DNA of 64,000 nucleotides, taken from assembly GCA_037387885.1 (NCBI GenBank), contig JARRKQ010000001.1:491-64490 (forward strand), written 5' to 3'. Source of the stretch: Alphaproteobacteria bacterium. GTDB lineage: Bacteria; Pseudomonadota; Alphaproteobacteria; JAPULJ01. Made by a program: the position numbers and the translations under genes. Each line of letters starts with the position of its first letter. The first letter of the stretch is position 1. Shown here piece after piece: positions 1 through 16,757 of the stretch. The notes under the pieces were generated by a model. It was not told the origin of the DNA, did no database searches, and was given only the letters and a program-made list of their open reading frames with translations.

Positions 1-1941
1 CGAAAGGCAGTTCGACTGCTCGACACAGTCGCCGCAGCCCTCGCAGACGTCCTGGTTGATGAAGATGCGCTTGTCGGGATCGGGGAAGGTGCCGCGCTTC
101 CTGCGGCGGCGCTTTTCGGCGGCGCAGGTCTGGTCGTAGATGAGCGCGGAGACGCCCGGCCAGTCGCGCAATTCGCGCTGCACCTCGTCGAGGTCGCGGC
201 GGTGATGGAAGGTGACGCCCGGCGCGAAGTTGGAGCCGATCGGATACTTGTCGGGCTCGTCGGAGACGACGGCGATGCGATCAACGCCCTCATCGGCGAC
301 CTGGCGCGAGATCATCGGCACGGAAAGCGGGCCGTCGACCGGCTGTCCGCCGGTCATGGCGACGGCGTCGTTGAAGAGGATCTTGTAGGTGATGTTGACG
401 CCGGCCGCCTTGGCCGCGCGGATCGCCATCAGGCCGGAATGGTAGTAGGTGCCGTCGCCGAGCGACTGGAAGACATGGTTGGTCGTGGTGTGCGGCGCCT
501 GGCCGATCCAGGTCGCACCCTCGCCGCCCATATGGGTCCAGCCGTAAACGTCGCGGTCCATCCAGACGGCCATGAAGTGGCAGCCGACGCCGCCGACCGC
601 GCGGCTGCCCTCGGGCACGCGCGTTGAGGTGTTGTGCGGACAGCCGGAGCAGAAATAGGGCGTACGGGCGACGATCGCCTCCGAGCCCTTGTGTCCGCCG
701 ATGCTGTCGAGGAACGCCATGCGTTCCTTGAGCGCGCTGTCGTCGCCGTGCATCGCCAGCAGGCGTTTGCCGATGGCGCGGGCAAGCTGCTCGGGTGTGT
801 GCGTGCCGTAAGGCGGCAGCAGCTCGGCGCCCGTCTCGTCGGTCTTGCCGATGATGCGCGGGGATTTCTCGCGGCTGTTGTAGAGCAGCTCCTTCATCTG
901 GGTTTCGATGAAGGCGCGCTTCTCCTCGATGACGAAGACCTCCTCGAGCCCCTTCGCCAGGGTCTGCGCGATGTTGGGCTCGAGCGGCCAGATCATGCCG
1001 AGCTTGAGGAGCCGGATGCCGAGGGCCTCGGCGCGCTTCTCGTCGATCCCGAGAATGCGGAGCGCGCGGCGCACGTCGAGATAGCTCTTGCCGGCGGCGA
1101 CGATGCCCAGGCGCGCCTTGGGCGCGTCGAGCACGATCCTGTTGAGCCCGTTGGCGCGGGCATAGGCCTTGGCGGCCTCGAGCTTGTATTTGTACTGACG
1201 CGTCTCGGCCGGGATGGCCATCTCGCCGACGCGGGTGCTCATGCCGCCCTCGGGGATTTCCAGATCGCGGGGGCGGATGATCTTCGGCTCGTCGGGGTCG
1301 AGGGTGAGCGTGCCCGAGGCCTCGACCGTGTCGGCCTCGGTCTTGTAGCCGACCCAGAGGCCGGAGGTGCGCGAGAGCCCGAAGCCGAGCAGGCCCATTT
1401 CGATGAATTCGGTCATGCCCGCCGGATAGATCACCGGCATCAGCGCATCCATGAAGCTGAACTCGCTGGGCAGCGCGAAGGCCGAGGAGGTGGCGCCGTG
1501 GTCGTCGCCGACGATGGCGAGCACGCCGCCCTTCTCGAAGGCGCCGGCCTGGTTGCCGTGCTTGATCGCGTCCATCGAGCGGGCGAGGCCGGGGCCCTTG
1601 CCATACCAGATACCGAAGACGCCGTCATACTTCGCGCCGGGGAAGAGGTTGACCTCCTGCGTGCCCCAGATCGAGGTGGCAGCGAGGTCTTCGTTCACCC
1701 CTGGCAGGAAGGTGATGTTGTGCTGCTTCAGCAGCGCTTTCACGCGCCAGAGCTCCATGTCGTAGCGCCCGACGGGTGAGCCGCGATAGCCGGAGATGAA
1801 GCCGGCGGTGTTCAAGCCCGCCGCGGCGTCGCGTTTGTGCTGTTCGATTGGCAGGCGGACGAGCGCCTGCAGGCCGGACATGAAAACCTGACCGCGTTCG
1901 GCCAGATACTTGTCGTCGAGGGTGACAACATTCGACGTCAT
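1..1941 (-). CDS. Indolepyruvate/2-oxoacid:ferredoxin oxidoreductase family protein (fused IorA/IorB type). N-terminal ~646 codons; the C-terminus runs off the window edge
   Basis: Minus-strand translation from ATG at 1939-1941, with GGAGG 6 nt upstream, reads MTSNVVTLDDKYLAERGQVFMSGLQALVRLPIEQHKRDAAAGLNTAGFISGYRGSP. That is the canonical IOR-family N-terminus. Near position 1 it reads ...DQTCAAEKRRRRKRGTFPDPDKRIFINQDVCEGCGDCVEQSNC, a ferredoxin-like Cys cluster. The gene is absent from the ORF track only because it is open at the window edge. The plus-strand ORFs 202..627 and 634..1779 are antisense artefacts. Confidence 0.8.
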   Translation of the reverse strand, partial: MTSNVVTLDDKYLAERGQVFMSGLQALVRLPIEQHKRDAAAGLNTAGFISGYRGSPVGRYDMELWRVKALLKQHNITFLPGVNEDLAATSIWGTQEVNLFPGAKYDGVFGIWYGKGPGLARSMDAIKHGNQAGAFEKGGVLAIVGDDHGATSSAFALPSEFSFMDALMPVIYPAGMTEFIEMGLLGFGLSRTSGLWVGYKTEADTVEASGTLTLDPDEPKIIRPRDLEIPEGGMSTRVGEMAIPAETRQYKYKLEAAKAYARANGLNRIVLDAPKARLGIVAAGKSYLDVRRALRILGIDEKRAEALGIRLLKLGMIWPLEPNIAQTLAKGLEEVFVIEEKRAFIETQMKELLYNSREKSPRIIGKTDETGAELLPPYGTHTPEQLARAIGKRLLAMHGDDSALKERMAFLDSIGGHKGSEAIVARTPYFCSGCPHNTSTRVPEGSRAVGGVGCHFMAVWMDRDVYGWTHMGGEGATWIGQAPHTTTNHVFQSLGDGTYYHSGLMAIRAAKAAGVNITYKILFNDAVAMTGGQPVDGPLSVPMISRQVADEGVDRIAVVSDEPDKYPIGSNFAPGVTFHHRRDLDEVQRELRDWPGVSALIYDQTCAAEKRRRRKRGTFPDPDKRIFINQDVCEGCGDCVEQSNCLS

Positions 1942-2031
1942 ACGTTACCTCCGAGGGTCTTGCGGCCTCGTCGCAAGAGGCCTGGCCGGAAGCGCGCGAC
2001 GCACTCGGTCAAGCGGCGGACCGTCCGGCCG

Positions 2032-3225
2032 TCATGCTGATATCCCGGTCTCGCGAAGGTGCTTGCACTCGGCCTCCGAGAAACCGGCTTCCATTAGGAT
2101 CTTGTCCGTATGCTCGCCGTATTTGGGCGGAAAGGCAATGTCGCGTTTTGCATAGGGCATATCCACCGCCATGGGTTGCATGCGGATTTCCTTGCCGTCC
2201 GGCAGATGCGTGCGGGTGAGCTTCGATGCAATCGCCGGCATCTCGCGCGCCTGCGGCACGGTGTTGATGCGTGCGTTGGGAATGCCCGCGGCGGCGAATT
2301 CGGCCTCGACCTCGTCGGTCGTGCCGGTCGATGTCGCGTCGCCCAGCTCCTTGTAGATCGCGTGGCGGTCGGCATAGCGCTCGTCGTTGGTGGTGCGGTT
2401 GTCGCGCGCAAGGCCGGCAAAGCGCGGGATCGCGGTCAGGCGCCGCCACTGGGTGTTCGAGCCCATCGCCATGTAGATGAAGCCGTCGCTGGTCGGATAG
2501 ACATTGGTCGGGATGAACTTGCGGTGCGCGTTGCCCCAGCGCGAATACTCTTCGGGATCGGCGTCGAAGTCGATGAGCGGCAGGGTGGTGATGAGCCACG
2601 AGGCGGCGGCCTGCGTCATCGAGACGTCGATACGCTTGCCCTCGCCGGTCTCGGCCTGCTCCGCGAGGCCGAGCATCACGTTGGCGTAGACCTCGTCGCC
2701 GGCTTTGAGGTCGATGATCGGGATGCCCGAGAGCGTCGGCGGGCCGTCCGGAAACCCGGTGGTCTCCATGAAGCCGGTCTGCGCCTGGATCGCCGGATCG
2801 TAGCCGGGGGTCTTGGGATAGTCCGGGCCCATCGCCGAGATGCCGGCCCAGATGAGCTTCGGGTTGATCGCCGACAAGGTCTCGTAGTCGATGCCGAAGG
2901 GCTCGTAGCGGCCGGGCAGGGTGTTGCAGCAGAAGACATCGACCTCGAGCTCGCGCACGATCTTGTGCAGCGCTTCGCGGCCCTCTTCCGATTTGAGGTT
3001 GAGCGCGATCGCCTCTTTGCCGCAGTTGGGCGCGACGAAATAGGAGTGGCGGTCGTCGTCGAGGACCTTCGAGCCGATGTACCGGTTGGGGTCGCCCGGA
3101 TGCGCATCGCCGTCGAGCGGCGTCGACTCGAGCCGGATCACCCGCCAGCCAAGCTGCACGAAGCGCAGCGTCGCGTACGTCATGGAGAGCGCCTGCTCCA
3201 TGGAGAGGACGGTGCGGGGCTTCAT
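2032..3225 (-). CDS. Family III CoA-transferase (CaiB/BaiF type)
   Basis: 397-aa ORF. The block [70 protein letters not shown]...[54 protein letters not shown] matches the conserved core of family III CoA-transferases. The ATG is at 3223-3225. Confidence 0.85.
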
Positions 3226-3329
3226 GGGCGGACCTTAACCTGGATAAACATGAGACCCTCGTCCTTCGACAAGCTCAGGATGAGGCCCTCATGCCGAGCC
3301 TGTCGAAGCATGTGGGCCGGGATGACTTG

Positions 3330-5654
3330 TTACTCCGCCGCCTGGCGCATCCGCTGCTCGCGCTCGAAAAGGCCGCGGGCGAGCTTCTCGGGCGAGACAG
3401 GCGGGTGGTCGATGCGCACGCCGGTGGCGTTGTAGACGGCGTTGCCGACGGCCGGCGCGATCACGATGGTCGGAAGCTCGGCGATGCCCTTGGCGCCGGC
3501 GGGGCCTTCGGAGTCCATGGTCTCGATGAAGGTCATGTCGATGCGTGGCATCTCGGGCGCGGTGAAGAGGTGATAGTCGCGGAAGAACGGGTTCTTCACG
3601 ATGCCCTTCTCGATCTTCAGATCTTCGGAGAGGGCGTAGCCGAGACCCATGGCGATGCCGCCCTCGATCTGGCCCTCGAGGCCGGTGAGGTTGATGACGC
3701 GGCCGACATCCTGGACCGACCACACGGTCTCGACCTTCACTTCGCCGGTGAAGGTGTCGACGATCACCTCGGCGACGTGGACGGCGTTGGAGTACGCGGC
3801 CGACATGTCGCCCACATGGTTCTCGTCCTCCGATTCGGTCGGCGGCTCGTAGTAGTCGGACTGGATGACGAGCTGCGCGGCCTCGCCGGCGAAGTGCATC
3901 TGGCGGAGCAGCCGGTCGAGCGGCATCACCGCGACGCCGTCTTCTGCCTGCACGACATGGCCGCCGCGGAGATCGAGCGCGTCGGCGGAGACGTTCGACT
4001 GCTTGGCCGCCGCATCGAGGATCTGCGCCTTGGCCTTCTGGGCGGCGCGCTGGGCCGACTTGCCGGCGATATAGGTGGTGCGGCTGGCATGCACGCCGAC
4101 ATCCCAGGGCCCGGTCGCGGTGTCGTTGGCGACGATGGTGACGTCGCGCATCGGAATGCCGAGCTCCTCGGCCATGATCTGCGCGATCACCGTGTCGATG
4201 CCCTGGCCGATCTCGCTCGCGCCGGTGATCACGGTGATGCGGGCGTAGTCGTCCATCTTGATGATGGTGCCGCAGCCGTCGGATTTGTGGATCTTGGCGC
4301 CGCCGGCATTGTGCAGCGAGGCGGCGATACCGATGCCGCGCTTGTAGCGCTCGGGGCTGTCCCAGCCGTCCTTGTACTTGGCCCACTTCGCCAGGAAATC
4401 GGATTTCTCCGCCGCGGTGTTGAGGCAGCCGACGAGGTCGATGCAGCCGAGGTTCGAGCCCTGCGGCGTGATCTCGTCGGGCTCATTGGCGTTCTTCAGG
4501 CGGAACTCGATCGGGTTGAAGCCGCCGATCTCCGCCATCTTGTCCATATGCGTCTCGATCGCCCAGGTCGCCTGGACGTTGCCGTAGCCGCGGAAGGAGC
4601 CGGCGAAGGGGTTGTTCGTGTAGACCGCCTTGGCGCTGTAGTGGATGTGCGGCACCTTGTAGTGCGAGGTGATGGTCCGCATCGTGACGTAAGGCGTGGT
4701 CGCGCCCCACGAGGTGTAGCCGCCGTTATTGAGCAGCGTGTCGACCTCGCGAAACGTAAGCGTGCCGTCCTTCTTCATACCCGCCTTGATCTTGAACTCG
4801 ACCGGCTGGCGGGTCGGCGAGGCGATAAACTCCTCCTCGCGGCTGAAGATGACCTTGACCGGGCGGCGGGTTGCCTTGGCGAGCAGCACGCAGATCGGCT
4901 CGTAGGGATAGACGTCGAGCTTGGAGCCGAAGGCCCCGCCGACGGGCGGCTGGACGATGCGCACGTCGCCCGGATGCATGCCGAGCGAGGGGGCGATGTC
5001 CATCTTCATGATGAAGGGATACTGCGACTGCGAGTAGAGCGTGACGCGGCCGTCGGGGTCGATGTCGGCGACGGCGCAGGACACGCCCATGTTGCAGTGG
5101 GTGACGTAGTGGACGTTGTAGTCGCCCTCGACGATGAAGTCGCTCTCGGCCTTGCCCTGCTCGATATCGCCGTGGTCGAAGTGCTGCGCCATGGCGATGT
5201 TGTCGGGCCGCTCCTCGTGGATCACCGGGGCGCCGTCCTTGAGCGCGTCCTCGCATTCGAAGACGGTCGGCAGATCCTCGTATTCGACCGTAATGAGTCG
5301 CAGCGCCTCGTCGCAGGCTTCCTCGCTCTCGGCGGCGACGGCGGCGATCTCGTCGCGGATGCAGCGCACCCGGTCCTTCTTGAGCGGCGGGTTGTCCTTC
5401 AGGACGCCGATGCCGAAATCAGGCGTGTCCGCGCCGGTCAGCACGGCGTGCACGCCGGGGACCGCTTTGGCCTTTTCGGTGTCGATCCGCAGGATCTTGG
5501 CGTGCACCCGATCGGTGCGCAGGATCTTGCCGTAGAGCATGCGCGGCAGGACCATGTCGTTCACGTAGCGCGTGCGGCCGGTCGTCTTGTCGGGCGCGTC
5601 CATCTTGCGCACGCGCTTGCCGATGATGGTGTCCTTCTCGATGATCTTGGTCAT
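3330..5654 (-). CDS. Xanthine dehydrogenase / aldehyde oxidase family molybdopterin-binding large subunit
   Basis: 774-aa ORF (MTKIIEKDTIIGKRVRKMDAPDKTTGRTRYVNDMVLPRMLYGKILRTDRVHAKI...). It is the same architecture as CoxL/XdhB-type Mo-hydroxylase large subunits. Genes for the 2Fe-2S and FAD subunits lie immediately upstream in the same operon. Confidence 0.85.
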   Translation of the reverse strand: MTKIIEKDTIIGKRVRKMDAPDKTTGRTRYVNDMVLPRMLYGKILRTDRVHAKILRIDTEKAKAVPGVHAVLTGADTPDFGIGVLKDNPPLKKDRVRCIRDEIAAVAAESEEACDEALRLITVEYEDLPTVFECEDALKDGAPVIHEERPDNIAMAQHFDHGDIEQGKAESDFIVEGDYNVHYVTHCNMGVSCAVADIDPDGRVTLYSQSQYPFIMKMDIAPSLGMHPGDVRIVQPPVGGAFGSKLDVYPYEPICVLLAKATRRPVKVIFSREEEFIASPTRQPVEFKIKAGMKKDGTLTFREVDTLLNNGGYTSWGATTPYVTMRTITSHYKVPHIHYSAKAVYTNNPFAGSFRGYGNVQATWAIETHMDKMAEIGGFNPIEFRLKNANEPDEITPQGSNLGCIDLVGCLNTAAEKSDFLAKWAKYKDGWDSPERYKRGIGIAASLHNAGGAKIHKSDGCGTIIKMDDYARITVITGASEIGQGIDTVIAQIMAEELGIPMRDVTIVANDTATGPWDVGVHASRTTYIAGKSAQRAAQKAKAQILDAAAKQSNVSADALDLRGGHVVQAEDGVAVMPLDRLLRQMHFAGEAAQLVIQSDYYEPPTESEDENHVGDMSAAYSNAVHVAEVIVDTFTGEVKVETVWSVQDVGRVINLTGLEGQIEGGIAMGLGYALSEDLKIEKGIVKNPFFRDYHLFTAPEMPRIDMTFIETMDSEGPAGAKGIAELPTIVIAPAVGNAVYNATGVRIDHPPVSPEKLARGLFEREQRMRQAAE

Positions 5655-5688
5655 GGAGCGGGTTCCCTAGCGCATGAGGTCGATTGAT

Positions 5689-6165
5689 TCAGGCGGTGGC
5701 CGTTCGCCCGGCGGCGATGACGGCGTCGATGATCTTCTTGTAGCCGGTGCAGCGGCAGACATTGCCTTCGAGGCCGCGCCGGATCTCGTCTTCCGACATG
5801 TTCGGATTGCGGTCGAGCAGATAGCGGATCTGCATGATCATGCCGGGCGTGCAAAAGCCGCACTGCACCGCGCCATGCTCGATGAAGGCGTCCTGCACGG
5901 GATCGATGCCGGCGTCGGTCCACAGGCCTTCGACCGTGAGCACCTCGCGGCCCTCGAGATCGACCGCGGGCATGAGGCAGGAATTGAGCGACTGGCCGTC
6001 CACGATCACGGTGCAGGCGCCGCATTCGCCCTCGCCGCAGGCGAGCTTGGCGCCGGCGAGGTCGAGGCGCTCGCGCAGGATCGTCAGCGCCGAGGCGCCG
6101 ACCGGAACGCCGACGCGGGTCGTCCGGCCGTTCAGTGTGAAAGTAACGTCAACCTGAAGCGGCAT
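5689..6165 (-). CDS. (2Fe-2S)-binding small subunit of the molybdenum hydroxylase
   Basis: It carries the two cluster motifs CGEGECGACTV and CGFCTPGMIMQ...CRCTGY. The likely start is MPLQVDVTFTLNG at 6165, and the long upstream extension in the ORF track is probably not translated. It overlaps the stop of the FAD subunit gene by 17 nt. Confidence 0.85.
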   Translation of the reverse strand: MPLQVDVTFTLNGRTTRVGVPVGASALTILRERLDLAGAKLACGEGECGACTVIVDGQSLNSCLMPAVDLEGREVLTVEGLWTDAGIDPVQDAFIEHGAVQCGFCTPGMIMQIRYLLDRNPNMSEDEIRRGLEGNVCRCTGYKKIIDAVIAAGRTATA

Positions 6166-7039
6166 GTCCGAGCTCCTGCATGAGATAGGCGCGTGCGAGG
6201 CGGCGGCGGTACCAGGCCGAGCCGCGATGGTCGTCGATCGGCGCGATCTCGGCGTCGAGCGCCTCGGCGGCGGTGTCAATTAAGGCATCATCGATGCTCT
6301 TGCCCTCCAGCGCGGCCTCGGTCTTGCGGGCGCGGATCGGCGTGGGCGCCACGGCCCCCAGCGCGAGCCGCACGTCGCGCAACGTTCCACCCTCGACATA
6401 GGCAGCGAAACCGAGCGAAACCAGGGCGATTTCGAGCGCCGGCCGCGGGCCGGTCTTGGCGAAGCCGCCATAAAAATTCTTGCCGGGAACCGCGAATTCG
6501 ACGCCGGTGATGAGCTCCTCCGGTGCGATCACGGTCTTGCCAGGGCCGGCGAAGACCTCGTTTATCGGCACGGTGCGCGTCTTGACCTTGCCGGCCTTCA
6601 TGGAGGCGAGCGAGACCTCGGCATCGAGGCAGAGCAGGGGGATCACGAAGTCGGCCGCGGGCGAGGCGTTGGCGATATTGCCGCCGACGGTCGCCGCATT
6701 GCGAATTTGTACGCTTGCGAACTTATCGGCCGCAGCTCGAAGCAGCGGGACTTTCTTGGCCAAATCCTTGTGCTCGAGCACCTGCGTCATGGTGACGAGC
6801 GCGCCGAGACGGATGCGGCCCGCCTTCACCTCGATGCCCGCAAGCTCGGGGACGTTCTTAATGTTGACGAGGCGCTTGCCGACCGCGCGGCCCGGCTCGT
6901 CCTTCTGGACCCAGAGGTCGGTGCCGCCGGCAACGCAGGTCGCGGCGCCATCCGCCAACGCGTCGAGCGCTTCGTCGAGCGAGCGGGGCGCAGCGTATTC
7001 CTCGATCGCCGGCGGTTGTTGGAGCTGGGGAAGGGTCAT
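6149..7039 (-). CDS. FAD-binding subunit of the molybdenum hydroxylase (CoxM/XdhA-like)
   Basis: 296 aa with a FAD-binding PCMH-type domain (AGGTDLWVQ...TVGGNIANASPAAD). At this length it lacks the Cys-rich insertion seen in 4-hydroxybenzoyl-CoA reductase HcrB. Confidence 0.85.
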   Translation of the reverse strand: MTLPQLQQPPAIEEYAAPRSLDEALDALADGAATCVAGGTDLWVQKDEPGRAVGKRLVNIKNVPELAGIEVKAGRIRLGALVTMTQVLEHKDLAKKVPLLRAAADKFASVQIRNAATVGGNIANASPAADFVIPLLCLDAEVSLASMKAGKVKTRTVPINEVFAGPGKTVIAPEELITGVEFAVPGKNFYGGFAKTGPRPALEIALVSLGFAAYVEGGTLRDVRLALGAVAPTPIRARKTEAALEGKSIDDALIDTAAEALDAEIAPIDDHRGSAWYRRRLARAYLMQELGHAASG

Positions 7040-7066
7040 TGCGGTCCTTTGTCTCTTTACGCGTGC

Positions 7067-8692
7067 CTAGAACCGCATCGGTTCCTGATAGCGGCCGAAC
7101 GCTTCCGTCAGCACGGCGGTGATCTCGCCGACCGAGGCGTAAGCCTTCACCGCATCCATGATCGCGGGCATCGTGTTGGCGTCGCCCTCGGCGGCGGCCT
7201 TAAGGTCGGCCAGCGCCTTGTCGACGGCGGCCTGGTCGCGGGTGGCCTTGACGTCGTTGAGGCGGCCGATCTGCCGGTCGGTGTCTTCCTTCTTGTAAGG
7301 ATGCATCTCGACCTCGGGCTCGTCCTCCTCGATCTCGTAGCAGTTGACGCCGACCTTGCGGTATTCGCCGGTCTCGAGGTCCTTCTGGTGCTCGTAAGCC
7401 TGCTTGGAGACGTGGGCCTGGATCTCGCCGTCGGCGATCATCTTGACGATGCCGCCCTTGTCGTCGAGCTCCTTCATGATGCGGACCATCTCGGCTTCCA
7501 TCTGGTTCGTCAGCGTCTCGACGTAGTAGGAGCCGGCGAGGGGGTCGACCGTATCGGTCATCCCCATCTCCTCGATCAGGAGCTGCATGGTGCGCAGCGA
7601 GATGCGCTGCGCCTTTTCCGACGGGATCGTGTACGCCTCGTCGTAGCAGCAGAGCGCGATGGTCTGCGCGCCGGAGAGCACGCAGCCGAGCGCATAGTAG
7701 GCGCCGCGCATGATGTTGTTCTCCGGCTGCTCGATGGTGAGGCCCGCGCCGCCGCCGCCGGCGATCATGCGCAGCCACATCGATTTGGGGTTCTTGGCGC
7801 CGTACTTGTTCTTGACGATCTTGGCCCAGAGGCGGCGGCCCGCGCGGAACTTGCAGACCTGCTCGAAGAACTGGCCGAAGATGTTGTAGTTGAACGACAT
7901 CCGGTAGGCGAACTCGTCGATGTCGAGCCCGCGCTTCAGCACCTCGTCGAAGTATGCGCTGGCGATGGCGAAGCCGTAGGCCATCTCTTCCGTCGGCGTC
8001 GCGCCCGATTCGCGGATGTGATAGCCGCAGACCGAGACGGGCGAGTAGAGCGGCGCGTGCTTGGCGCAATACTCCATCGTGTCGGCGACGAGGCGCACCG
8101 AGGGCTCGACCGGATAGATCCATGTGCCGCGGCCGACGAACTCTTTCAGAATGTCGTTCTGGCAGGTGCCGCGGAGCTTCGAAAGATCGAAGCCGCGTTT
8201 CTCGGCCATCGCCAGATACATCGCGATCATGATCGCGGCGGTGCCGTTGATGGTGAGCGAGACGGTGATGTTCTCGATGTCGATACCGTCGAAGGCGATC
8301 TCGACGTCTTTCAGCGTGTCGATCGCCATGCCGACGCGGCCGACCTCGCCGCCGGCCATCGGATCGTCGCTGTCATAGCCGCACTGGGTCGGCAGGTCGA
8401 AGGCGACGTTGAGGCCTGTATTGCCGGTCTCGATCAGATATTTGAAGCGCTTGTTCGTGTCCTCGGCGTTGCCAAAGCCCGTGTACTGGCGCATCGTCCA
8501 TGGCCGCTTGCGGTACATCATGTCGTGGATGCCGCGCGTGAACGGGTATTCGCCCGGCTTGCCGATTCCGTCGGGCGCCCCTTCATCGGGCAAGCGGGTC
8601 GCCTCCACGTCCTCTTCGGTATAGATCGGCTTGATCTCGATGCCCGACTCGTTGCGGCGGGTATCGGCGTCCGGTTTACGCTGCACGTTCAA
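7067..8692 (-). CDS. Methylmalonyl-CoA-mutase-family acyl-CoA mutase, large catalytic subunit (split form, no fused B12 domain)
   Basis: 541 aa. Conserved blocks PFTRGIHDMMYRKRPWTMRQYTGFGNAED and GLNVAFDLPTQCGYDSDD, then TCQNDILKEFVGRGTWIYPVEPSVR and GYHIRESGA. The substrate-contact positions are Tyr (RQYTGF) and Arg (FVGRGTW), as in methylmalonyl-CoA mutase, not the Phe/Gln pair of isobutyryl-CoA mutase. The start is a TTG at 8690-8692 with AAGGAG 7 nt upstream. Confidence 0.85.
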   Translation of the reverse strand: MNVQRKPDADTRRNESGIEIKPIYTEEDVEATRLPDEGAPDGIGKPGEYPFTRGIHDMMYRKRPWTMRQYTGFGNAEDTNKRFKYLIETGNTGLNVAFDLPTQCGYDSDDPMAGGEVGRVGMAIDTLKDVEIAFDGIDIENITVSLTINGTAAIMIAMYLAMAEKRGFDLSKLRGTCQNDILKEFVGRGTWIYPVEPSVRLVADTMEYCAKHAPLYSPVSVCGYHIRESGATPTEEMAYGFAIASAYFDEVLKRGLDIDEFAYRMSFNYNIFGQFFEQVCKFRAGRRLWAKIVKNKYGAKNPKSMWLRMIAGGGGAGLTIEQPENNIMRGAYYALGCVLSGAQTIALCCYDEAYTIPSEKAQRISLRTMQLLIEEMGMTDTVDPLAGSYYVETLTNQMEAEMVRIMKELDDKGGIVKMIADGEIQAHVSKQAYEHQKDLETGEYRKVGVNCYEIEEDEPEVEMHPYKKEDTDRQIGRLNDVKATRDQAAVDKALADLKAAAEGDANTMPAIMDAVKAYASVGEITAVLTEAFGRYQEPMRF

Positions 8693-9083
8693 GGGTCTTC
8701 TCCTTGATGAAATCGACGATTTCGTTGAGCTTCGAGCCGGTGTTGAACACCGCGTCGAGCCCGATCTTGCGCAAGGCCTCGTGGTCCTCGCGGGGCACGT
8801 TGCCGCCGATCACCCAGAGGCGGTCGTCGAGCCCGTATTCCTTCAGCAGTTCGGCAATGCGCTCGCAGATCGGAATATGCGAGCCGGAGAGGATGGAGAG
8901 CGCGATCACGTCGACATCCTCGTCGCGGGCGGCGTTGGCGATCATCTCCGGGCTCTGGCGTAGGCCCGTATAGATGACCTCGAAGCCGGCATCGACCAGC
9001 GCGCGCACCACGATCTTGGCCCCGACGTCATGGCCGTCGAGGCCGGGCTTGGCGACCAGGATGCGGACTTTCTTGTCAGCCAT
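8676..9083 (-). CDS. Cobalamin-binding small subunit of the split acyl-CoA mutase
   Basis: 135 aa (MADKKVRILVAKPGLDGHDVGAKIVVRALVDAGFEVIYTGLRQSPEMIANAA...). It has a DxHxxG-type B12-binding motif (GLDGHDVG). Its 3' end overlaps the start of the large subunit gene by 17 nt. Confidence 0.85.
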   Translation of the reverse strand: MADKKVRILVAKPGLDGHDVGAKIVVRALVDAGFEVIYTGLRQSPEMIANAARDEDVDVIALSILSGSHIPICERIAELLKEYGLDDRLWVIGGNVPREDHEALRKIGLDAVFNTGSKLNEIVDFIKEKTLERAA

Positions 9084-9101
9084 CGTGCTGCGCTCCGATA
9101 T

Positions 9102-10802
9102 CTATTCCGCCGCCTGCGACGCCGGCTCGTAGCCGTAGACTTCGCGGGCGGTGTCTTCTGAAATGATGCCGTTCTTGACCTCTTCGGCGAGCTTGGTGCG
9201 GTCGCGCTTCTTGGGATCGCCGTAGCCGCCTCCGCCGCCGGCCTGCTGGAAATAGACCGTGCCCTTCGGCAGTCCGGTAATGAGGTCCTTGTTGAGCGGC
9301 ACCACGTCGTTGCCGTCGGGGGTGGTGAGCTTGATCGTGTTGAGCGTGCCGTCGCCGCCGCCGAAGAGCCCGAAGGCGGGCTCGTAGTCGCCGTCGCCGA
9401 AGGTCACGAGCTGGGTGTTGTCGGAGCCGAATTCGTAGACCGTCTCGATGCCGATTCCGCCGCGCCACTGTCCGGCGCCGGCCGAGTCGGTCAGATATTC
9501 GTGCTTGATCAAGCGGTGCGGCGACTGCTGTTCGAACATCTCGTAGTCCTGGTCGAGCACGCCGCCCGAGGCGTCGATCATACCGATATGGTCGTAGCCG
9601 TCGGTGCCATTCATGGCGCCGGCGCCGCCCTTCATGCCCATGAAGAAGATGTCGACGTAGTCGTCGTCCTTCTCCTCGTCGAAGCCGGTGGTGAGCGACG
9701 AGAGCAGATTGTTCCAGCCGGCCGTCACGCGGTCGGGAATGGCCGGCGCGAGTGCGCGCTGGATCGCGTCTGCGTTGGGCGGGCAGAGGTGGTTGCCGAA
9801 GGTGGTCGCCGCCGGATAGCCGGCGTTCAGGATCGTGCCTTCGGGAATGATGATCTCCAGCGGCGCCAGCATACCCTCGTTATGCGGAATGTCGGGATTG
9901 ACCATCTGGAGCAGCGTCAGCGCCGTGGCGCTCGCGCTCGAGGTATAGGTGCCGTTGACGAAGCCGTTGGTGCGCGCATCGGTCTTGGAATAGTCGAAGG
10001 TGATCGCCTTGTCCTTGACCTCGATGTCGACGCGGATGGTGTATTTGGAGCCCTTGTTCTTGCCGTCGTAATAGACGTAGCCCTCGCCCGAGTAATTCCC
10101 GTTCGGGATCGAGCCGATCTCGGCTTCCATCATCTTCTGCGTGGCATCGAAAAGCGCCAACTTGTGCCGCTCGAAGACGTCGAGCCCGTGTTTTTCCAAC
10201 AGCGCCACCATGCGCCGCGCGCCGACATTGGTCGCGCCCATCTGCGAGCGCATGTCTTCCTGGACGATGTCGAAGCGGATATTGGCGAAGATGAGGTCCC
10301 AGACATCCTTGCGGAAGGTGCCGCCGTCATAGACCTTGACCGGCGGGATGCGGATGCCTTCCTGCCAAACCTCTACGGCGTTGGGGTTGTAGCCGCCAGC
10401 GACCGCGCCGCCGATATCGGCCTGGTGGCCCTTGACCGCCGTCCAGGCGACCAACTTGTCCTCAAAGAAGATCGGCCGGAACACGGCAACGTCGTTGTTC
10501 TGGTTGCCCATCGAGAAGACGTCGTTGTGGAAGATGACGTCGCCCGGCTTAAAGTCACCCTCGAAATACTCGATGATGTATTTGCACACCGGCGCCAGCG
10601 AGAAGGCGAGGATCGGCAGGTTCTCGGTCTGCTCCAGCATCCGGCCTTCGCCGTCGTAGAGCCCGGTCACGAAATCCTTGGCCTCGCACAAGATGGGCGA
10701 GCGCGCGGTTTGCTCGACCGACATGCTCATCTCGTCGGTGATCGACTTGAAGGCGCGCGCGAAGACCGACAGCAGGATCGGATCGATATCGGATTTGCTC
10801 AT
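9102..10802 (-). CDS. Hydantoinase B / oxoprolinase family protein (HyuB-like)
   Basis: 566 aa, starting MSKSDIDPILLSVFARAFKSITDEMSMSVEQTARSPILCEAKDFVTGLYD, a typical HyuB N-terminus. It overlaps the hyuA stop by 4 nt (ATGA). Confidence 0.85.
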   Translation of the reverse strand: MSKSDIDPILLSVFARAFKSITDEMSMSVEQTARSPILCEAKDFVTGLYDGEGRMLEQTENLPILAFSLAPVCKYIIEYFEGDFKPGDVIFHNDVFSMGNQNNDVAVFRPIFFEDKLVAWTAVKGHQADIGGAVAGGYNPNAVEVWQEGIRIPPVKVYDGGTFRKDVWDLIFANIRFDIVQEDMRSQMGATNVGARRMVALLEKHGLDVFERHKLALFDATQKMMEAEIGSIPNGNYSGEGYVYYDGKNKGSKYTIRVDIEVKDKAITFDYSKTDARTNGFVNGTYTSSASATALTLLQMVNPDIPHNEGMLAPLEIIIPEGTILNAGYPAATTFGNHLCPPNADAIQRALAPAIPDRVTAGWNNLLSSLTTGFDEEKDDDYVDIFFMGMKGGAGAMNGTDGYDHIGMIDASGGVLDQDYEMFEQQSPHRLIKHEYLTDSAGAGQWRGGIGIETVYEFGSDNTQLVTFGDGDYEPAFGLFGGGDGTLNTIKLTTPDGNDVVPLNKDLITGLPKGTVYFQQAGGGGGYGDPKKRDRTKLAEEVKNGIISEDTAREVYGYEPASQAAE

Positions 10803-12910
10803 GCCACGGCCTCCAGACTGGGTTTGACCAGCTCTTCGCGGCCCTTCTGGTAGACCGCAAACGAGCCGTACTGGTCGCAGACGCAGTCGTAGGACTGGGT
10901 GACCAGGATCGAGGTGTTTTCCTGTTCGATGATCGCGGGCCCCGTGATCCGATAGCCGAACTTGGTGTTGTGGCCATCATAGACCGGGACGGTCGCCGCT
11001 TCGCCGGTTTCGGGCACGATGATCTTGCGCTCGCCCTTGAGCGCGGGCGAGGGGTCAGCCCCGGCATAGCTCTCTTGGGTGTAGGCCGGCTTGTCGGTGC
11101 GGCCGACCGCCTGCAGGCGGACATTGATGATCTCGACCGGCGTGCCCTGCTCCTCCAGCGAATAGCCGTAGAGCCGGTTGTGCTCGGCGTGGAAGAGCGC
11201 CTTGATCGCCTCGCCGTCCTGCGCCTCGACGGCGCTGATCGGTGCCTCGTGCGTGACCTCGTGATACTGTTTGGCGTAGCGCGCATCGAGCTTGAGGATG
11301 TAGTCGCGCCGATCCTTTGAGATGCTCTCGCTGTCGAGCAAAGCGTCGCCCTCCGCGCGCATCTCGGCGATCAGCGCGTTCAAAGTCTGCCAGTCGCCGT
11401 CGTCGATGCGGCGGACATAGCTGCGCACGAAGTCGTGCTTCAAGTCCGACATCAGCATGCCGGCGGCGCAAAAGATCGAGCTTTCGCGCGGTACGATGAG
11501 CAGTGGGATTTCGAGCTCCTCGCCGATCATGCAGGCGTGGTTGGGGCCGGCGCCGCCGGCGACCACCATCGGGAACTCGCGCGGATCGAAGCCGCGCTTG
11601 ATGGTGATCTCGCGCACGCCCTGGGCCATATTGGTGTTGATGACGCGGTACATGCCGAGCGCGGCTTCCTCGACCGACATGCCGAGCGGCTTGGCGATCT
11701 TCTCTTCGATCGCCTTGCGCGCCGCATCGACGTCGAGCTTCAGTTTGCCGCCGGCGAAGTAGCCCGGATCGAGATAGCCCAGCACCAGATCGGCATCGGT
11801 GCAGGCCGGCAGCTCGCCGCCCTGGCCGTAGCAGACCGGGCCCGGATCGGCGCCCGCGCTTTGCGGGCCCATGCGCAAGAGGCCGCCTTCGTCGATCCAG
11901 CCGATCGAGCCGCCGCCGGCGCCGATGGTGACGATGTCGAGCATCGGCAGCGCGATACGGTAGCGGTTGATCTCGCCCTCGTTCGCCGTGATCGGCACGC
12001 CGTCGAGTACCATCGCGGCATCGAAGCTGGTGCCACCCATATCGACGGTGAGGCAGTTCTTCTGGCCGTGCGCCTCGGCGTAGCCGAGCCCGGCGACCGG
12101 ACCCGCCGCCGGGCCGGAGAGCAGCGTCATCGCCGCCGTCGTCTGCGCCGTCTCGGGCAGCACCACGCCGCCATTCGACTGCATGATCAAGAGCACGCCC
12201 TTGAAGCCGGTATCGGCCAAACGCTTCATCAGCGCGTCGATGTAAGCGCGCAGCTTGGGGCCGTTGTACGAATTCAGAACCGTCGTCGAGACGCGGTTAT
12301 AGAAGCGGATCGAGGGCAACAGCTCTGCGGAAACCGTGAGATAGGCGTCCGGCATTTCGCGTGCGACGAGCTCGCCCGCAGCCTTCTCATGCGCGGGATT
12401 GGCGAAGGCGTTCATGAAGCAGATCGCCACCGCCTCGACGCTCTCGGCCTTGAAGGTCTCGATCGCGGCGCGGACATCGTCGAGCTCGAGGCCTTCGATC
12501 TCGCGGCCCTTGCGGTCGAGCCGGCCGCGCACGCCGGCGCGCAGATAGCGCGGCACCAGCGGCGGCACGTTGGTGTAGCGGTTGTTGTACTGCTCCTCGC
12601 GGATGCCGCGGCGCATTTCCAAAGCGTCGCGCACGCCCTCGGTGGTGATGAGGCCGGACTTGGCGCCCGTGCGGGTCAGCGTCGCGTTCGTCGTCACCGT
12701 GGTGCCGTGGACGATCGTGTCGATCGTCGGTGCGAAGGCCTCCAGCGTGCTGCCGGCGGCCTTGGCGATGTCGGTCAGCCCGTTGATCAGGCCGATGGAG
12801 GGATCCTTAGGCGTCGACAGCGTCTTGAAGATCTGCGGTTCCGCGTCGTCCGAGACGACCAGGAAATCCGTGAAGGTGCCGCCAACGTCGATGCCGATCT
12901 TGGTCGTCAC
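10799..12910 (-). CDS. Hydantoinase A / oxoprolinase family protein (HyuA-like)
   Basis: 703 aa. The GTG start reads MTTKIGIDVGGTFTDFLVV, followed by the ASKHA-fold ATPase motifs typical of hydantoinase A. A GGAAGGGA ribosome-binding site lies upstream. No acetone-carboxylase gamma subunit gene follows it. Confidence 0.85.
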   Translation of the reverse strand: MTTKIGIDVGGTFTDFLVVSDDAEPQIFKTLSTPKDPSIGLINGLTDIAKAAGSTLEAFAPTIDTIVHGTTVTTNATLTRTGAKSGLITTEGVRDALEMRRGIREEQYNNRYTNVPPLVPRYLRAGVRGRLDRKGREIEGLELDDVRAAIETFKAESVEAVAICFMNAFANPAHEKAAGELVAREMPDAYLTVSAELLPSIRFYNRVSTTVLNSYNGPKLRAYIDALMKRLADTGFKGVLLIMQSNGGVVLPETAQTTAAMTLLSGPAAGPVAGLGYAEAHGQKNCLTVDMGGTSFDAAMVLDGVPITANEGEINRYRIALPMLDIVTIGAGGGSIGWIDEGGLLRMGPQSAGADPGPVCYGQGGELPACTDADLVLGYLDPGYFAGGKLKLDVDAARKAIEEKIAKPLGMSVEEAALGMYRVINTNMAQGVREITIKRGFDPREFPMVVAGGAGPNHACMIGEELEIPLLIVPRESSIFCAAGMLMSDLKHDFVRSYVRRIDDGDWQTLNALIAEMRAEGDALLDSESISKDRRDYILKLDARYAKQYHEVTHEAPISAVEAQDGEAIKALFHAEHNRLYGYSLEEQGTPVEIINVRLQAVGRTDKPAYTQESYAGADPSPALKGERKIIVPETGEAATVPVYDGHNTKFGYRITGPAIIEQENTSILVTQSYDCVCDQYGSFAVYQKGREELVKPSLEAVA

Positions 12911-12980
12911 GGTGCCATCCCTTCCGGTTTATTGGATCACACAAACACAGCCAGTCTTCGCCAGCTTTCGAGGTGACTAT

Positions 12981-13016
12981 AACACAATATTGTTGGACGT
13001 CCAACAATATTGTGTT
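12981..13016. promoter_or_regulatory. Perfect 36-bp palindrome in the divergent hyuA/ech promoter region; a putative MarR operator
   Basis: AACACAATATTGTTGGACGTCCAACAATATTGTGTT equals its own reverse complement (checked base by base). It is AT-rich in a high-GC context, and it lies between the hyuA start (12910) and the crotonase start (13135). Confidence 0.6.
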
Positions 13017-13134
13017 TGCCGGCATGCCCAAGCCGGCCGCTTGCGGTCGCCCGCGGCGCCCGGTAGCGTCGGGCATCATATGGGAGACAACCGGGCGGCA
13101 AAACCACCGGATTAGAAAGGGAGCGAGGCGAGCC

Positions 13135-13926
13135 ATGGCGGAGAATGCATTGCTGTTCGAGGTGCGCGACGGGGTTGCGCGGATCACGCTGAACCGGCCC
13201 GACGAGGCCAATCCGCTAGCGGTCGAAAGCGCCAAGAAGCTGTTCGACTATGCGATCGAGATCGACCAGGATCCCAGCATCCGCGCCGTGATCTTGACCA
13301 GCACCGGCCGGTTCTTCTCCGCCGGCGGCGACCTCAAGTTCTTCCACGACAATGCCGACCGGGTCGGCCATGTGCTGAAGGAAACGACGAGCTATCTGCA
13401 CGCCGCGCAGTCGCGCTTCGCGCGCATGGCAGCACCAGTCGTAGTCGCGATCAACGGGATTGCGGCGGGCGGCGGGGCGAGCATCGCCTTTTGCGGCGAC
13501 ATCGTTCTGGCGGCGCAGTCGGCGACCTTCACCATGGGCTACACGGCGGCCGGCCTCTCGCCGGACGGTTCCTCATCCTACTACCTGCCGCGGCTGGCGG
13601 GCCTGCGGCGGGCGCAGGAGCTCTTCCTGACCAATCGCCGGTTCACCGCGGACGAGGCGGCCGAATGGGGCCTCATCACCCGCGTCGTGCCGGACGATAA
13701 GCTGATGGAGGAGGCCGACGCTCTGGTCGCGCAGCTGGCCAAGGGGCCGACCCAGGCCTTCGGCTCGGTGAAGGCGCTGTTGGCGGATACGTTCACCAAC
13801 ACGCTGGAAACCCAGCTGGAGATGGAGACCCGCCACATCGCGGCCAACGGGGCGGGGCATGACGGCCGCGAAGGTGTTGCGGCCTTCGTGGCCAAGCGCA
13901 AGCCCGACTTCAAGGGCGTGCAATAG
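13135..13926 (+). CDS. Enoyl-CoA hydratase/isomerase (crotonase) family protein
   Basis: The start reads MAENALLFEVRDGVARITLNRPDEANPL, preceded by a GGGAG ribosome-binding site. The oxyanion-hole region reads FFSAGGDLK ... AINGIAAGGG. The ORF-track start at 12973 is an upstream extension and probably not translated. Confidence 0.85.
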   Translation: MAENALLFEVRDGVARITLNRPDEANPLAVESAKKLFDYAIEIDQDPSIRAVILTSTGRFFSAGGDLKFFHDNADRVGHVLKETTSYLHAAQSRFARMAAPVVVAINGIAAGGGASIAFCGDIVLAAQSATFTMGYTAAGLSPDGSSSYYLPRLAGLRRAQELFLTNRRFTADEAAEWGLITRVVPDDKLMEEADALVAQLAKGPTQAFGSVKALLADTFTNTLETQLEMETRHIAANGAGHDGREGVAAFVAKRKPDFKGVQ

Positions 13927-13990: not shown

Positions 13991-14010
13991 TTTGTTGGAC
14001 GGCAAACAAA
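13991..14010. promoter_or_regulatory. Operator-like inverted repeat upstream of marR, related to the 36-bp palindrome
   Basis: TTTGTTGGACGGCAAACAAA shares the TTGTTGGACG...AACAA core with the 12981 palindrome. It sits 20 nt upstream of the marR start codon. Confidence 0.4.
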
Positions 14011-14029
14011 TCCCGGCTATGATGCGCCC

Positions 14030-14557
14030 ATGAGCGATATCAGCGATATGAGCGACAGGCCCGATCCGGCCCATTCAGATGCGGCGGCGCAGACCGGCAA
14101 TGGCCAAGACCGCCATGGCGCGATCGATTTCGGCGACCTCGACGACTTCGTGGGCTTTCAGCTGCACCGCGCGCGCAACGTTGCCGCCTCGGTGCTGCAC
14201 AAGCTGATCGCGCCCGAGTTCGTGCCGGGGCATTTCCCCATCCTTTATCTGATCGCACAGAACCCCGACCGTACCCAATCGGCGATCGCCAGGGCCGTGG
14301 GGCTCGACCGCTCGTCGCTGGTGCCGATCCTCAACCGGTTCGAGAAGAGCGGCTGGGTCCAGCGCATTCCCTCGCAGGGCGACAAGCGCGCCCATGCGCT
14401 TCGCCTGACGCCCGCGGGCGAGCGCAAGATGCAGGACCTCCGCGACAAGGTGATGTCGATGGAGGACCGGATCTCCGACGCGCTGGGCGACGACGGCCAG
14501 AAAGCCATGCTCGACTATCTCCGGCGCATCCAGGACGCATTTGATCAAACGCGGTAG
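14030..14557 (+). CDS. MarR family transcriptional regulator
   Basis: MSDISDMSDRPDP...QSAIARAVGLDRSSLVPILNRFEKSGWVQRIPSQGDKRAHALRLTPAGE is a MarR winged-helix fold. The start is placed at the ATG at 14030, and the 13859 start in the ORF track gives an unlikely N-terminal extension. Confidence 0.8.
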   Translation: MSDISDMSDRPDPAHSDAAAQTGNGQDRHGAIDFGDLDDFVGFQLHRARNVAASVLHKLIAPEFVPGHFPILYLIAQNPDRTQSAIARAVGLDRSSLVPILNRFEKSGWVQRIPSQGDKRAHALRLTPAGERKMQDLRDKVMSMEDRISDALGDDGQKAMLDYLRRIQDAFDQTR

Positions 14558-14607
14558 GTGATCAAACGCTGTAGGTGATCAAACGCGGTAGGCGACCAGA
14601 CGCGGGG
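14543..14607. repeat. 17-bp tandem repeat, 3.8 copies (GATCAAACGCGGTAGGT), spanning the marR stop codon
   Basis: The copies read GATCAAACGCGGTAGGT, GATCAAACGCTGTAGGT, GATCAAACGCGGTAGGC and GACCAGACGCGGGG. The marR TAG stop lies inside the first copy. Confidence 0.7.
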
Positions 14608-14676
14608 AGCACAACAGTCCCGTTCGCTTGACCGAGGTCAAGGCGCCGTTGCCGCCGCACCGATCAAATCGTTCCC

Positions 14677-16026: not shown

Positions 16027-16332
16027 CGCACTTCCGCATACGTGGTCATGCAGCTATTGGTCCATTTTGTCGCAGGCCGGCTTAGGAATGGATATTGGCA
16101 AGGCGGGCCCACGTATTCTATTTTGCAGGGCAGGACGCTGGCGGGAGTGCTCGTACAGCGCGTTTTGGCGCGCTGACCGGAGAATTGACTGGAAATCTGG
16201 CCAGACCTCTGGATACTCACGCCATGTTCAAGCAATCGTAACGGGGTTCGCCCGGGACGATGAACCCTGCAACGGGACAGAATTCATGACAGTCGTGAAA
16301 CCGGACTGTCGTTGAGCGAAAGGAGCCATGGG

Positions 16333-16734
16333 ATGAGGTTTTTGATTTTGCTGTTCGCCTCGCTGGCCATGACGGTGGCCGCCGGTTCGGCCTATTCGGC
16401 AGGCGACGCCAAGCGCGGCGGGAAGCAGTTCAGCCGCTGCAAGGCTTGCCATTCCGTTGAAGCGGGCAAGAACAAGATCGGTCCCTCGCTCCACGGCGTT
16501 GTCGGCCGCAAGGCCGGGACCGCGGCGAAGTACAAATATTCCAAGAGCCTCGCGGCCGCCGGTGCAAAGGGTCTCGTCTGGACCGAGGAGAACCTGATGG
16601 AGTATCTGAAGGGCCCGACGAAGTTCCTGAAGAAGTATCTCGATACCAAGAAGGTCCACAACAAGATGAAGAACCGCTTCAAGAAGAAGTCGCTGCGCGA
16701 GAACATCATCGCCTATCTGGCGACGCAGAAGTAA
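16333..16734 (+). CDS. Class I c-type cytochrome (cytochrome c2/c550-like)
   Basis: A signal peptide (MRFLILLFASLAMTVAAGSAYSA) is followed by the CKACH haem-binding motif and a Lys-rich C-terminus. AAAGGAG lies 8 nt upstream of the ATG at 16333. Confidence 0.85.
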   Translation: MRFLILLFASLAMTVAAGSAYSAGDAKRGGKQFSRCKACHSVEAGKNKIGPSLHGVVGRKAGTAAKYKYSKSLAAAGAKGLVWTEENLMEYLKGPTKFLKKYLDTKKVHNKMKNRFKKKSLRENIIAYLATQK

Positions 16735-16757
16735 CGCGCGCGTCAGGTTCGTGACGA

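Follow-up and report, generated by a model that had tools for sequence, protein, structure and literature searches.

Operon structure and orthology to the iaa genes of Azoarcus sp. CIB

Which catabolic pathway is encoded by the minus-strand gene cluster at the beginning of contig JARRKQ010000001.1 of an alphaproteobacterium (assembly GCA_037387885.1), and with which compound does this pathway begin? The stretch analysed here, referred to as the window, comprises 64,000 nt (positions 491 to 64,490 of the contig, forward strand). Its initial annotation suggested an iaa-type cluster for the anaerobic catabolism of indole-3-acetate, and this suggestion is corroborated by eight proteins of the cluster, which match the Iaa proteins of Azoarcus sp. 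CIB in full length, in collinear order and with 49-77% identity (BLASTP). Judging from its sequence, the cluster very probably is a genuine iaa-type operon, i.e., a relative of the known system rather than a new system.

The reference locus L038 (related loci are given as L numbers, homologous proteins as P numbers) is the contig encoding the exact IaaF of Azoarcus (Aromatoleum) sp. CIB (AKU11680.1/WP_050415548.1). It was reached by a homologue search with an acyl-CoA dehydrogenase (ACAD) encoded inside an iaa-type cluster, which returned P0261, the CIB protein with the UniRef name benzylmalonyl-CoA dehydrogenase, followed by an exact look-up. L038 carries, in this order, a partial gene encoding both a 3-hydroxyacyl-CoA dehydrogenase domain and an enoyl-CoA hydratase domain (minus strand), a TetR gene (minus strand), a GntR gene, and genes encoding a thiolase, an AMP-ligase, HydA, HydB, an ACAD, the B12-binding and the methylmalonyl-CoA mutase (MCM)-type subunits, the FAD, FeS, and Mo subunits, a CoA-transferase, and a periplasmic binding protein. 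This gene content agrees with the published iaa gene set, in which IaaB is assigned as ligase, IaaF as dehydrogenase, IaaGH as mutase, IaaL as transferase, and IaaM as binding protein (PMC8360864). The genes of the window are as follows, with the identity to the CIB protein given last:

1-1941, minus strand: fused IOR-family 2-oxoacid:ferredoxin oxidoreductase, N-terminal 647 aa by translation; runs off the window start; last visible gene of the operon
2032-3225, minus strand: IaaL-like family III CoA-transferase (phenylsuccinyl-CoA transferase type), 397 aa, Pfam CoA_transf_3; IaaL, 64%
3330-5654, minus strand: IaaK-like molybdopterin (Mo) subunit of a xanthine-dehydrogenase-family hydroxylase, 774 aa, Pfam; IaaK, 56%
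5689-6165, minus strand: IaaJ-like 2Fe-2S (FeS) subunit, 158 aa, Pfam Fer2/Fer2_2, of the same length as the gene called in L001; IaaJ, 56%
6149-7039, minus strand: IaaI-like FAD subunit, 296 aa, Pfam FAD_binding_5 and CO_deh_flav_C; IaaI, 49%
7067-8692, minus strand: IaaH-like B12-dependent acyl-CoA mutase large subunit, 541 aa, Pfam MM_CoA_mutase; IaaH, 67%
8676-9083, minus strand: IaaG-like B12-binding small subunit, 135 aa, Pfam B12-binding; IaaG, 59%
9102-10802, minus strand: IaaE-like hydantoinase B-type subunit (HydB), 566 aa, Pfam Hydantoinase_B; IaaE, 77%
10799-12910, minus strand: IaaC-like hydantoinase A-type subunit (HydA), 703 aa, Pfam; first gene of the operon; IaaC, 67%
13135-13926, plus strand: crotonase-family enoyl-CoA hydratase, 263 aa, divergent, Pfam ECH_1; adjoins the operon also in L005 and L033
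14030-14557, plus strand: MarR-family regulator, 175 aa, Pfam MarR/MarR_2

According to open reading frame (ORF) listing, a codon-position GC filter, and Pfam and NCBIfam scans, nine intact minus-strand genes extend over positions 1-12910 from hydA (first) to the IOR gene (last), with the gene names and the order given initially. They overlap by 4-17 bp or are separated by gaps of at most 104 bp, which is consistent with a single operon transcribed from hydA to the IOR gene. The order corresponds to C-E-(F)-G-H-I-J-K-L of iaa, with F absent. That hydantoinase A and B occur without an acetone-carboxylase-like gamma subunit was borne out as well, since no ORF for such a third subunit was found in the operon. 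In case of the divergent enoyl-CoA hydratase, presence and orientation had been predicted correctly, but not the start: instead of GTG at 12973, ATG at 13135 is most likely, because conservation in the relatives L033 and L005 (N-terminus and the AGGGAG ribosome-binding site) begins only there. The predicted MarR gene next to it exists, but lies just past position 13926, where the initially annotated region ended, downstream of the hydratase gene on the same strand. The hydratase is a candidate 2-aminocinnamoyl-CoA hydratase. An Rfam scan of the whole window gave zero matches, cobalamin riboswitches included.

Alternative enzyme families

Taken by themselves, Pfam and NCBIfam yield only generic names for these proteins, as would be expected if unrelated housekeeping or catabolic genes, e.g., those of a methylmalonyl-CoA mutase, a xanthine dehydrogenase, and a caprolactamase or oxoprolinase, were adjacent by chance. 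None of the core proteins reaches an NCBIfam equivalog cutoff for these alternatives. HydA and HydB score 699.9 and 369.6 bits against CapA and CapB (cutoffs 1000), the acetophenone carboxylase profiles ApcC and ApcD give 388 and 101 bits (cutoffs 1500), the mutase scores 521.6 bits against the MCM equivalog (cutoff 876), and the Mo subunit 588 bits against XdhA (cutoff 780) and 584 bits against the 4-hydroxybenzoyl-CoA reductase alpha subunit (cutoff 995). Best matches to caprolactamase, other mutases, or similar enzymes, which the initial annotation had named as speaking against an iaa-type cluster, did not occur; the scores to the Iaa proteins are far higher. The mutase gives 751 bits to IaaH versus 509 to HcmA and 427 to human MCM (solved structures), the CoA-transferase 516 bits to IaaL versus 147 to formyl-CoA transferase, its best PDB match, and HydA 944 bits to IaaC versus 500 to 5-oxoprolinase, likewise its best PDB match.

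A Tyr (TMRQY), an Ala (LNVAFD), and an Arg (KEFVGRGTW) of the window mutase align with Ile, Asp, and Gln of HcmA, and CIB IaaH carries the same Tyr/Ala/Arg at the three positions. The Tyr/Arg pair is presumably the carboxylate-binding set of methylmalonyl-CoA mutase. The combination thus appears to fit a succinyl-CoA-type substrate carrying an aryl group.

Distribution and synteny

A homologue search with the CoA-transferase listed 120 relatives with at least 65% identity. One of them, P0055 (68% identity to the CoA-transferase of the window), is named phenylsuccinyl-CoA transferase by JGI and is encoded in L004 in the order HydA-HydB-ACAD-B12-MCM-FAD-FeS-Mo-CoA-transferase-SDR. All homologues with examined context (L001, L004, L034, and L120-L122) are located in iaa-type loci. 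A scan of genome contigs seeded with only two N-terminal peptide patterns of the Mo subunit revealed 29 loci, every one from metagenome-assembled genomes (MAGs) and Aromatoleum not among them. The alphaproteobacterial loci belong to the Hyphomicrobiales, Rhizobiaceae, Rhodobacteraceae, Sneathiellales, Rhodospirillaceae, and Rhodobiaceae, the gammaproteobacterial loci to the Lysobacterales, Wenzhouxiangellaceae, Ectothiorhodospiraceae, and Oceanospirillum. When mapped by tblastn, most of them showed the canonical order, with the ACAD gene between hydB and the B12 gene. In most, hydA is also immediately preceded by a gene for a thiolase or for a ligase resembling IaaB (48-54% identity), and the transferase gene is often followed by an SDR gene.

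Altogether, the same gene order was observed in about 30 independent loci (L004, L007-L034, L071, and L120-L122), the majority of them from alphaproteobacterial MAGs, so that the synteny in related genomes, proposed as a check in the initial annotation, was found and the arrangement is no chance juxtaposition. An accidental mixture of unrelated genes is extremely improbable: the genes overlap or are tightly packed, their order is kept throughout Alpha-, Beta-, and Gammaproteobacteria, and the identity to the Iaa proteins is much above that to any characterised alternative. Synteny together with orthology effectively refutes it.

Closest to the window are L033 and L005, with Mo identities of 98% and 96%, respectively; the two loci are alphaproteobacterial, in agreement with the host initially assumed. 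Against plasmids, tblastn gave no orthologue (best match at most 39% identity), and the cluster is hence not known on plasmids. A protein of Rhodopseudomonas palustris was placed in the IaaF branch, every member of which is encoded in an operon with further iaa genes (PMC8360864, Fig. 6). Due to this published IaaF, the presence of the system in the Alphaproteobacteria is not new. The initial view that it would be uncharacterised there holds for experiments, but not for presence, since clusters are widespread in public genomes; what is lacking for alphaproteobacterial iaa systems is experimental study.

Split arrangements were observed for L029, L030, and L006, which carry the Mo-hydroxylase genes nearest to those of the window outside its lineage (80-82%). 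In L030, several operons share between them the mutase genes, a MarR gene, an IaaF-like ACAD gene, a second ACAD gene, and the gene of a distantly related CoA-transferase (31%). Within 22 kb of L006, no genes of the cluster other than the three for the hydroxylase could be recognised. Additional genes occur beside the clusters of L122 (12342-20081; a second three-subunit Mo hydroxylase with crotonase, amidase, and AMP-ligase) and L121 (12883-16640; a second hydantoinase pair).

Accessory genes and location of iaaF in relatives

No tblastn match at E<1e-5 was obtained in the window for the IaaA thiolase, the IaaB ligase, IaaF, or IaaM of CIB, as anticipated initially for ligase, acyl-CoA dehydrogenase, and thiolase. 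The missing steps rest on the relatives or on parts of the genome outside the window. A common architecture is shared by the window, L001/L002, L005, L033, and L120 (85% CoA-transferase identity): an in-operon ACAD gene is absent and the IOR gene directly follows the transferase gene, followed in turn by a DUF169 gene in the relatives. Upstream of hydA, the window, L005, and L033 carry the hydratase and MarR genes and no ligase gene.

Only two relatives, L005 and L120 (96% and 91% Mo identity), have contigs that continue past the DUF169 gene. In both, a convergent operon HydA2-MaoC-HydB2-ACAD is situated beyond it (L005, 18730-22154; L120, 16057-21194), of which HydA2 is visible in L120 only, as L005 ends inside the MaoC gene. 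With CIB IaaF, the encoded ACAD shares 67-68% identity, and it contains the motif LIGGGTSE, as do the in-cluster ACADs inspected at 10 loci. GGG in place of YEG is the published IaaF signature (PMC8360864). The corresponding position in the genome of the window would fall before window position 1, where an acyl-CoA dehydrogenase gene had been suspected; this location is supported by L005 and L120, not by the genome's own sequence. A role of the divergent crotonase as benzylmalonyl-CoA decarboxylase replacing IaaF was considered and dropped due to the GGG-motif IaaF genes of these two loci.

The orthology and synteny of the eight genes and the occurrence of IaaF in the relatives are observed directly. 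L121 and L122 (76-80% CoA-transferase identity) keep the in-operon ACAD gene and lack the IOR gene, and the rearrangement thus appears to be specific to the lineage of the window. We presume that in this lineage the accessory set was rearranged by gain of the IOR and DUF169 genes and relocation of iaaF, and that the genes for ligase, thiolase, and binding protein are unlinked to the cluster.

The three independent assemblies L001, L002, and L033 end right after the DUF169 gene, and L005 has a DUF559 endonuclease-like gene there, which points to a repeated or variable element interrupting assemblies at this position. HydA2 (L120) and HydB2 (both loci) share 28-32% identity with the iaa hydantoinase pair.

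Regulation

Two sites carry a putative palindromic operator:

12981-13016: perfect 36-bp palindrome AACACAATATTGTTGGAC/GTCCAACAATATTGTGTT, putative MarR operator, found by repeat search in the 224-bp spacer between hydA and the hydratase gene
13992-14009: second copy of the operator core, TTGTTGGACGGCAAACAA, just upstream of marR

The palindrome recurs in L033 and, for the most part, in L005. Within the 64 kb, its core TTGTTGGACGKCMAACAA is confined to these two sites (0 expected by chance), and L033 carries it at the same two positions. A promoter-like site toward hydA (13003 to 12976, minus strand, TGGACG-16-TATAGT) overlaps the palindrome and a second one toward marR (13996-14023, plus strand, TGGACG-16-TATGAT) overlaps the second box. 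Since a scan for sigma-70-like promoters in the first 15 kb gave only these two matches, which equals the chance expectation, it is their placement over the boxes and not their number that is suggestive.

The best match of the MarR protein among solved structures is CouR (PDB 6c28; 65 bits, E 7e-17), which we take to be a p-coumaroyl-CoA-responsive MarR repressor. Membership of the 7kfo group of MarR structures, taken here as auxin-binding, is not claimed, as the match amounts to only 26 bits. Probably, the adjacent MarR protein represses the operon: it would occupy both palindromic boxes, which lie over the -35 regions, until an aromatic acid or an aryl-CoA acts as its ligand and releases it.

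In addition, 3.8 tandem copies of a 17-bp unit, TGATCAAACGCGGTAGG, begin at the marR stop codon (14542-14605) and fill much of the spacer before hemN.

Proposed pathway and substrate

By homology with the Aromatoleum enzymes, from which all catalytic steps are deduced, the operon would encode an oxygen-independent CoA-thioester route from the indole-3-acetyl skeleton to 2-aminobenzoyl-CoA. The IOR-family enzyme would supply indoleacetyl-CoA from indolepyruvate and CoA. The IaaIJK-like Mo hydroxylase would oxidise C2 of the pyrrole ring (step 1), and the ATP-dependent IaaCE-like hydantoinase pair would open the lactam ring thus formed, giving (2-aminophenyl)succinate or the corresponding CoA ester (step 2). 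The IaaL-like CoA-transferase would place CoA on the correct carboxyl group (step 3), and the IaaGH-like split B12 mutase would form (2-aminobenzyl)malonyl-CoA (step 4). A decarboxylating dehydrogenase of the IaaF type, whose gene lies outside the window and in the relatives past the IOR and DUF169 genes on the opposite strand, would yield 2-aminocinnamoyl-CoA (step 5), with which the divergent enoyl-CoA hydratase would start beta-oxidation (step 6).

For true Iaa orthologues, a different natural substrate is conceivable, namely another 3-substituted indole or oxindole acid, or an aryl-succinate from another pathway. The identity of several subunits (49-67%) leaves room for a shift in specificity, and the accessory genes differ from the reference by the IOR and DUF169 genes and, in relatives, by the second hydantoinase pair with MaoC. 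Moreover, the regulator is CouR-like, in place of the TetR/GntR regulators of the reference, and is unlike the MarR structures taken as auxin-binding. Nevertheless, such a substrate is unlikely, considering that all eight core genes are kept together in the same order, that the GGG signature of IaaF is kept in the relatives, and that CIB IaaH and the window mutase agree in the residues taken as substrate-binding.

IOR and the entry step

The IOR fragment (647 aa) scores 982.5 bits against the NCBIfam subfamily PRK13030 (cutoff 816) and is 94% identical to the full-length gene of L001; the full length in the relatives is about 1155 aa. It begins 90 bp after iaaL on the same strand, and this arrangement is conserved down to 85% CoA-transferase identity (L120). 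An IOR gene adjoins iaaL or iaaM in the lineage of the window, L015, L027, L034, and L071. L015 (Sneathiellales) carries it together with an aldo/keto reductase gene instead of IaaB upstream of hydA, and the Sulfuritalea-like loci L034-L037 show the gene order CoA-transferase, binding protein, Fer4 protein, IOR. In case of L027 (Rhodobiaceae, 14181-21692), where IaaB is present, the IOR gene is followed by genes encoding a PLP-dependent enzyme, a class I/II aminotransferase, and an FAA-hydrolase-family protein. This aminotransferase neighbourhood fits an entry of amino acids into the pathway.

In a metagenome scan for IORs, relatives occur at 49-56% identity among the matches listed (at least 600), and among 80 fused IORs sampled randomly from these, a single one was linked to iaa genes (L071), which represents a background rate and not a census. 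The iaa loci thus show this linkage much more often than IORs in general do. In a neighbour-joining tree without support values, the window-type IORs stand beside L015, L034 and L071 form a second clade, and L027 is placed apart, which points to at least three separate associations with iaa genes.

OFOR-type enzymes have been reported to convert indolepyruvate to indoleacetyl-CoA (PMC13290082), and indoleacetyl-CoA is the first intermediate of the pathway, formed by IaaB (PMC8360864). A direct entry from indolepyruvate to indoleacetyl-CoA via the IOR is thus chemically sensible and, with the support of the gene context, plausible. In the lineage of the window, the pathway is probably entered via the co-transcribed IOR, instead of or besides an unlinked ligase. 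Going further, it is tempting to speculate that IaaB was replaced by the co-transcribed fused IOR in this lineage and independently in a lineage of the Sneathiellales, which would result in a tryptophan-to-anthraniloyl-CoA route (tryptophan, indolepyruvate, indoleacetyl-CoA, 2-aminobenzoyl-CoA) that needs neither O2 nor free auxin, with a CouR-like MarR regulator sensing an aryl-CoA intermediate. We put forward this complete scenario tentatively and rate it as distinctly short of probable.

Free indoleacetate could instead be activated in the classical manner by an IaaB-type ligase encoded elsewhere, with the IOR providing a secondary entry or serving a different purpose, e.g., balancing redox via ferredoxin or oxidising some other 2-oxoacid; this is a serious possibility, which we place somewhat below an even chance. 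IaaB is located directly upstream of hydA in most iaa-type loci, fused IORs with about 50% identity are very common (79 of the 80 sampled are unlinked to iaa genes), and the substrate of the fused IOR subfamily is not established by the present results. The lineage of the window itself argues for entry via the IOR rather than a ligase: an IaaB-like ligase was found neither in the 64 kb of the window nor in about 5 kb (L005) and 6.4 kb (L120) beyond the IOR gene or about 2.4 kb upstream of hydA (L005 and L033), and the conserved position of the IOR gene behind iaaL as well as the iaa association in at least three IOR clades point in the same direction.

Several observations weigh against the explanation favoured here, an iaa-type operon probably entered via the IOR. 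The pathway is incomplete as visible, with IaaB, IaaA, IaaF, and IaaM lacking a homologue in the window, and the DNA stems from a MAG lineage that is uncultured. Reportedly, the functions assigned to Mo enzyme and hydantoinase are proposals even in Aromatoleum. The iaa-linked IORs are mutually 48-56% identical, i.e., no closer to each other than to unlinked ones, so that no dedicated orthologous group is demonstrated, and the tree carries no bootstrap values. Since L027 carries both IaaB and an IOR, the IOR need not replace the ligase. Finally, Rieske oxygenase genes are present in the window, due to which an anaerobic lifestyle is not implied.

Neighbouring genes

Beside the cluster, hemN, encoding an oxygen-independent coproporphyrinogen III oxidase (14677-16026; 474 bits, NCBIfam cutoff 325), and a small c-type cytochrome gene (16312-16734) are located, a combination that hints at a low-oxygen lifestyle. 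An aerobic-looking stretch of aromatic catabolism follows at 21068-30884 (minus strand). It comprises genes encoding a PcaD-like alpha/beta hydrolase, an SDR, a glyoxalase-fold protein, a VanA-like Rieske oxygenase, ABC transporter parts, a Rieske ferredoxin, and a two-subunit ring-hydroxylating dioxygenase, all with scores far under the equivalog cutoffs. For this reason, a link to the iaa genes through an anthranilate dioxygenase is not claimed for the nearby Rieske dioxygenase. The host probably is a facultative aerobe. For purified IaaF, only O2 was accepted as electron acceptor in vitro (PMC8360864), and 'oxygen-independent' is a more fitting term for the pathway than 'strictly anaerobic'.

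Further downstream, a single ORF (32086-33054) encodes an N-terminal MarR DNA-binding domain fused to a C-terminal GNAT acetyltransferase domain, and is followed by a gene (33062-34786) for a protein with many TPR repeats and a putative 2-oxoglutarate-Fe(II) oxygenase domain. Genes for a GntR/UTRA regulator, an aconitase-family protein, a phosphoenolpyruvate-mutase/isocitrate-lyase-family protein, and an isochorismatase-family hydrolase, adjoined by the TRAP genes DctM and DctP, are found at 52157-56400 and 57625-60796 and may represent a separate locus for organic-acid utilisation.

Significance

The turnover of auxin and tryptophan by bacteria in soils, sediments, and the sea has an influence on signalling between microbes and plants or algae. 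To our knowledge, the biochemistry of the oxygen-independent iaa route is known only from a few Betaproteobacteria. The window and about 30 related loci show that the route occurs commonly among uncultured Alpha- and Gammaproteobacteria, and that entry step, regulators, and position of the IaaF gene vary between lineages. If the proposed link to the IOR is true, tryptophan transamination would be joined directly to the pathway without ligase or free auxin, and iaa genes in metagenomes would have to be read as amino-acid catabolism, not as hormone degradation. If it is not true, the finding is a solid but unsurprising annotation.

Comparison with known systems

The closest characterised relative is given by the iaa operon (iaaA-M, P-R) of Aromatoleum aromaticum EbN1, A. 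evansii KB740, and Azoarcus sp. CIB. Eight genes, their order, and their orientation are shared with it, as are the Tyr/Ala/Arg residues of the mutase (CIB IaaH). A GGG-type IaaF is encoded in the nearest relatives of the window. In contrast to this operon, iaaB (ligase), iaaA (thiolase), and iaaM (binding protein) are missing from the 64 kb of the window, and iaaF is not located between iaaE and iaaG but, in the relatives, in a convergent operon. A fused IOR gene is situated after iaaL, in the relatives followed by DUF169, the hydratase is monofunctional and divergently encoded, and the regulator is of the MarR type, whereas TetR and GntR genes adjoin the reference cluster.

The canonical MAG clusters (e.g., L007-L012, L016-L022, L026-L028, and L031) have the same core order as the window. 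Their HydA, HydB, mutase large subunit, Mo subunit, and CoA-transferase are 61-83% identical to those of the window, and their FAD, FeS, and B12 subunits are less close (48-75%). Unlike the window, they carry iaaF between hydB and the B12 gene, usually iaaB or a thiolase gene upstream of hydA and an SDR gene after iaaL, and mostly no IOR gene.

HydA and HydB share the fold family, the two-subunit composition without gamma subunit, and, as likely chemistry, ATP-dependent lactam hydrolysis with caprolactamase CapAB, 5-oxoprolinase, and N-methylhydantoinase. They differ from CapAB in scoring well under the CapA and CapB cutoffs, and their identity to IaaC and IaaE is far higher. With methylmalonyl-CoA mutase and 2-hydroxyisobutyryl-CoA mutase, the window mutase has in common that it is a B12-dependent acyl-CoA mutase with split large and small subunits, and it keeps the Tyr and Arg at the positions presumed to be carboxylate-binding in methylmalonyl-CoA mutase. 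It differs from both in staying under the MCM cutoff, in lacking the Ile/Asp/Gln of HcmA, and in being nearest to IaaH. As regards regulation, the MarR protein resembles CouR in adjoining aryl-CoA catabolic genes and has palindromic boxes near its gene, but is separated from it by a match of just 65 bits.

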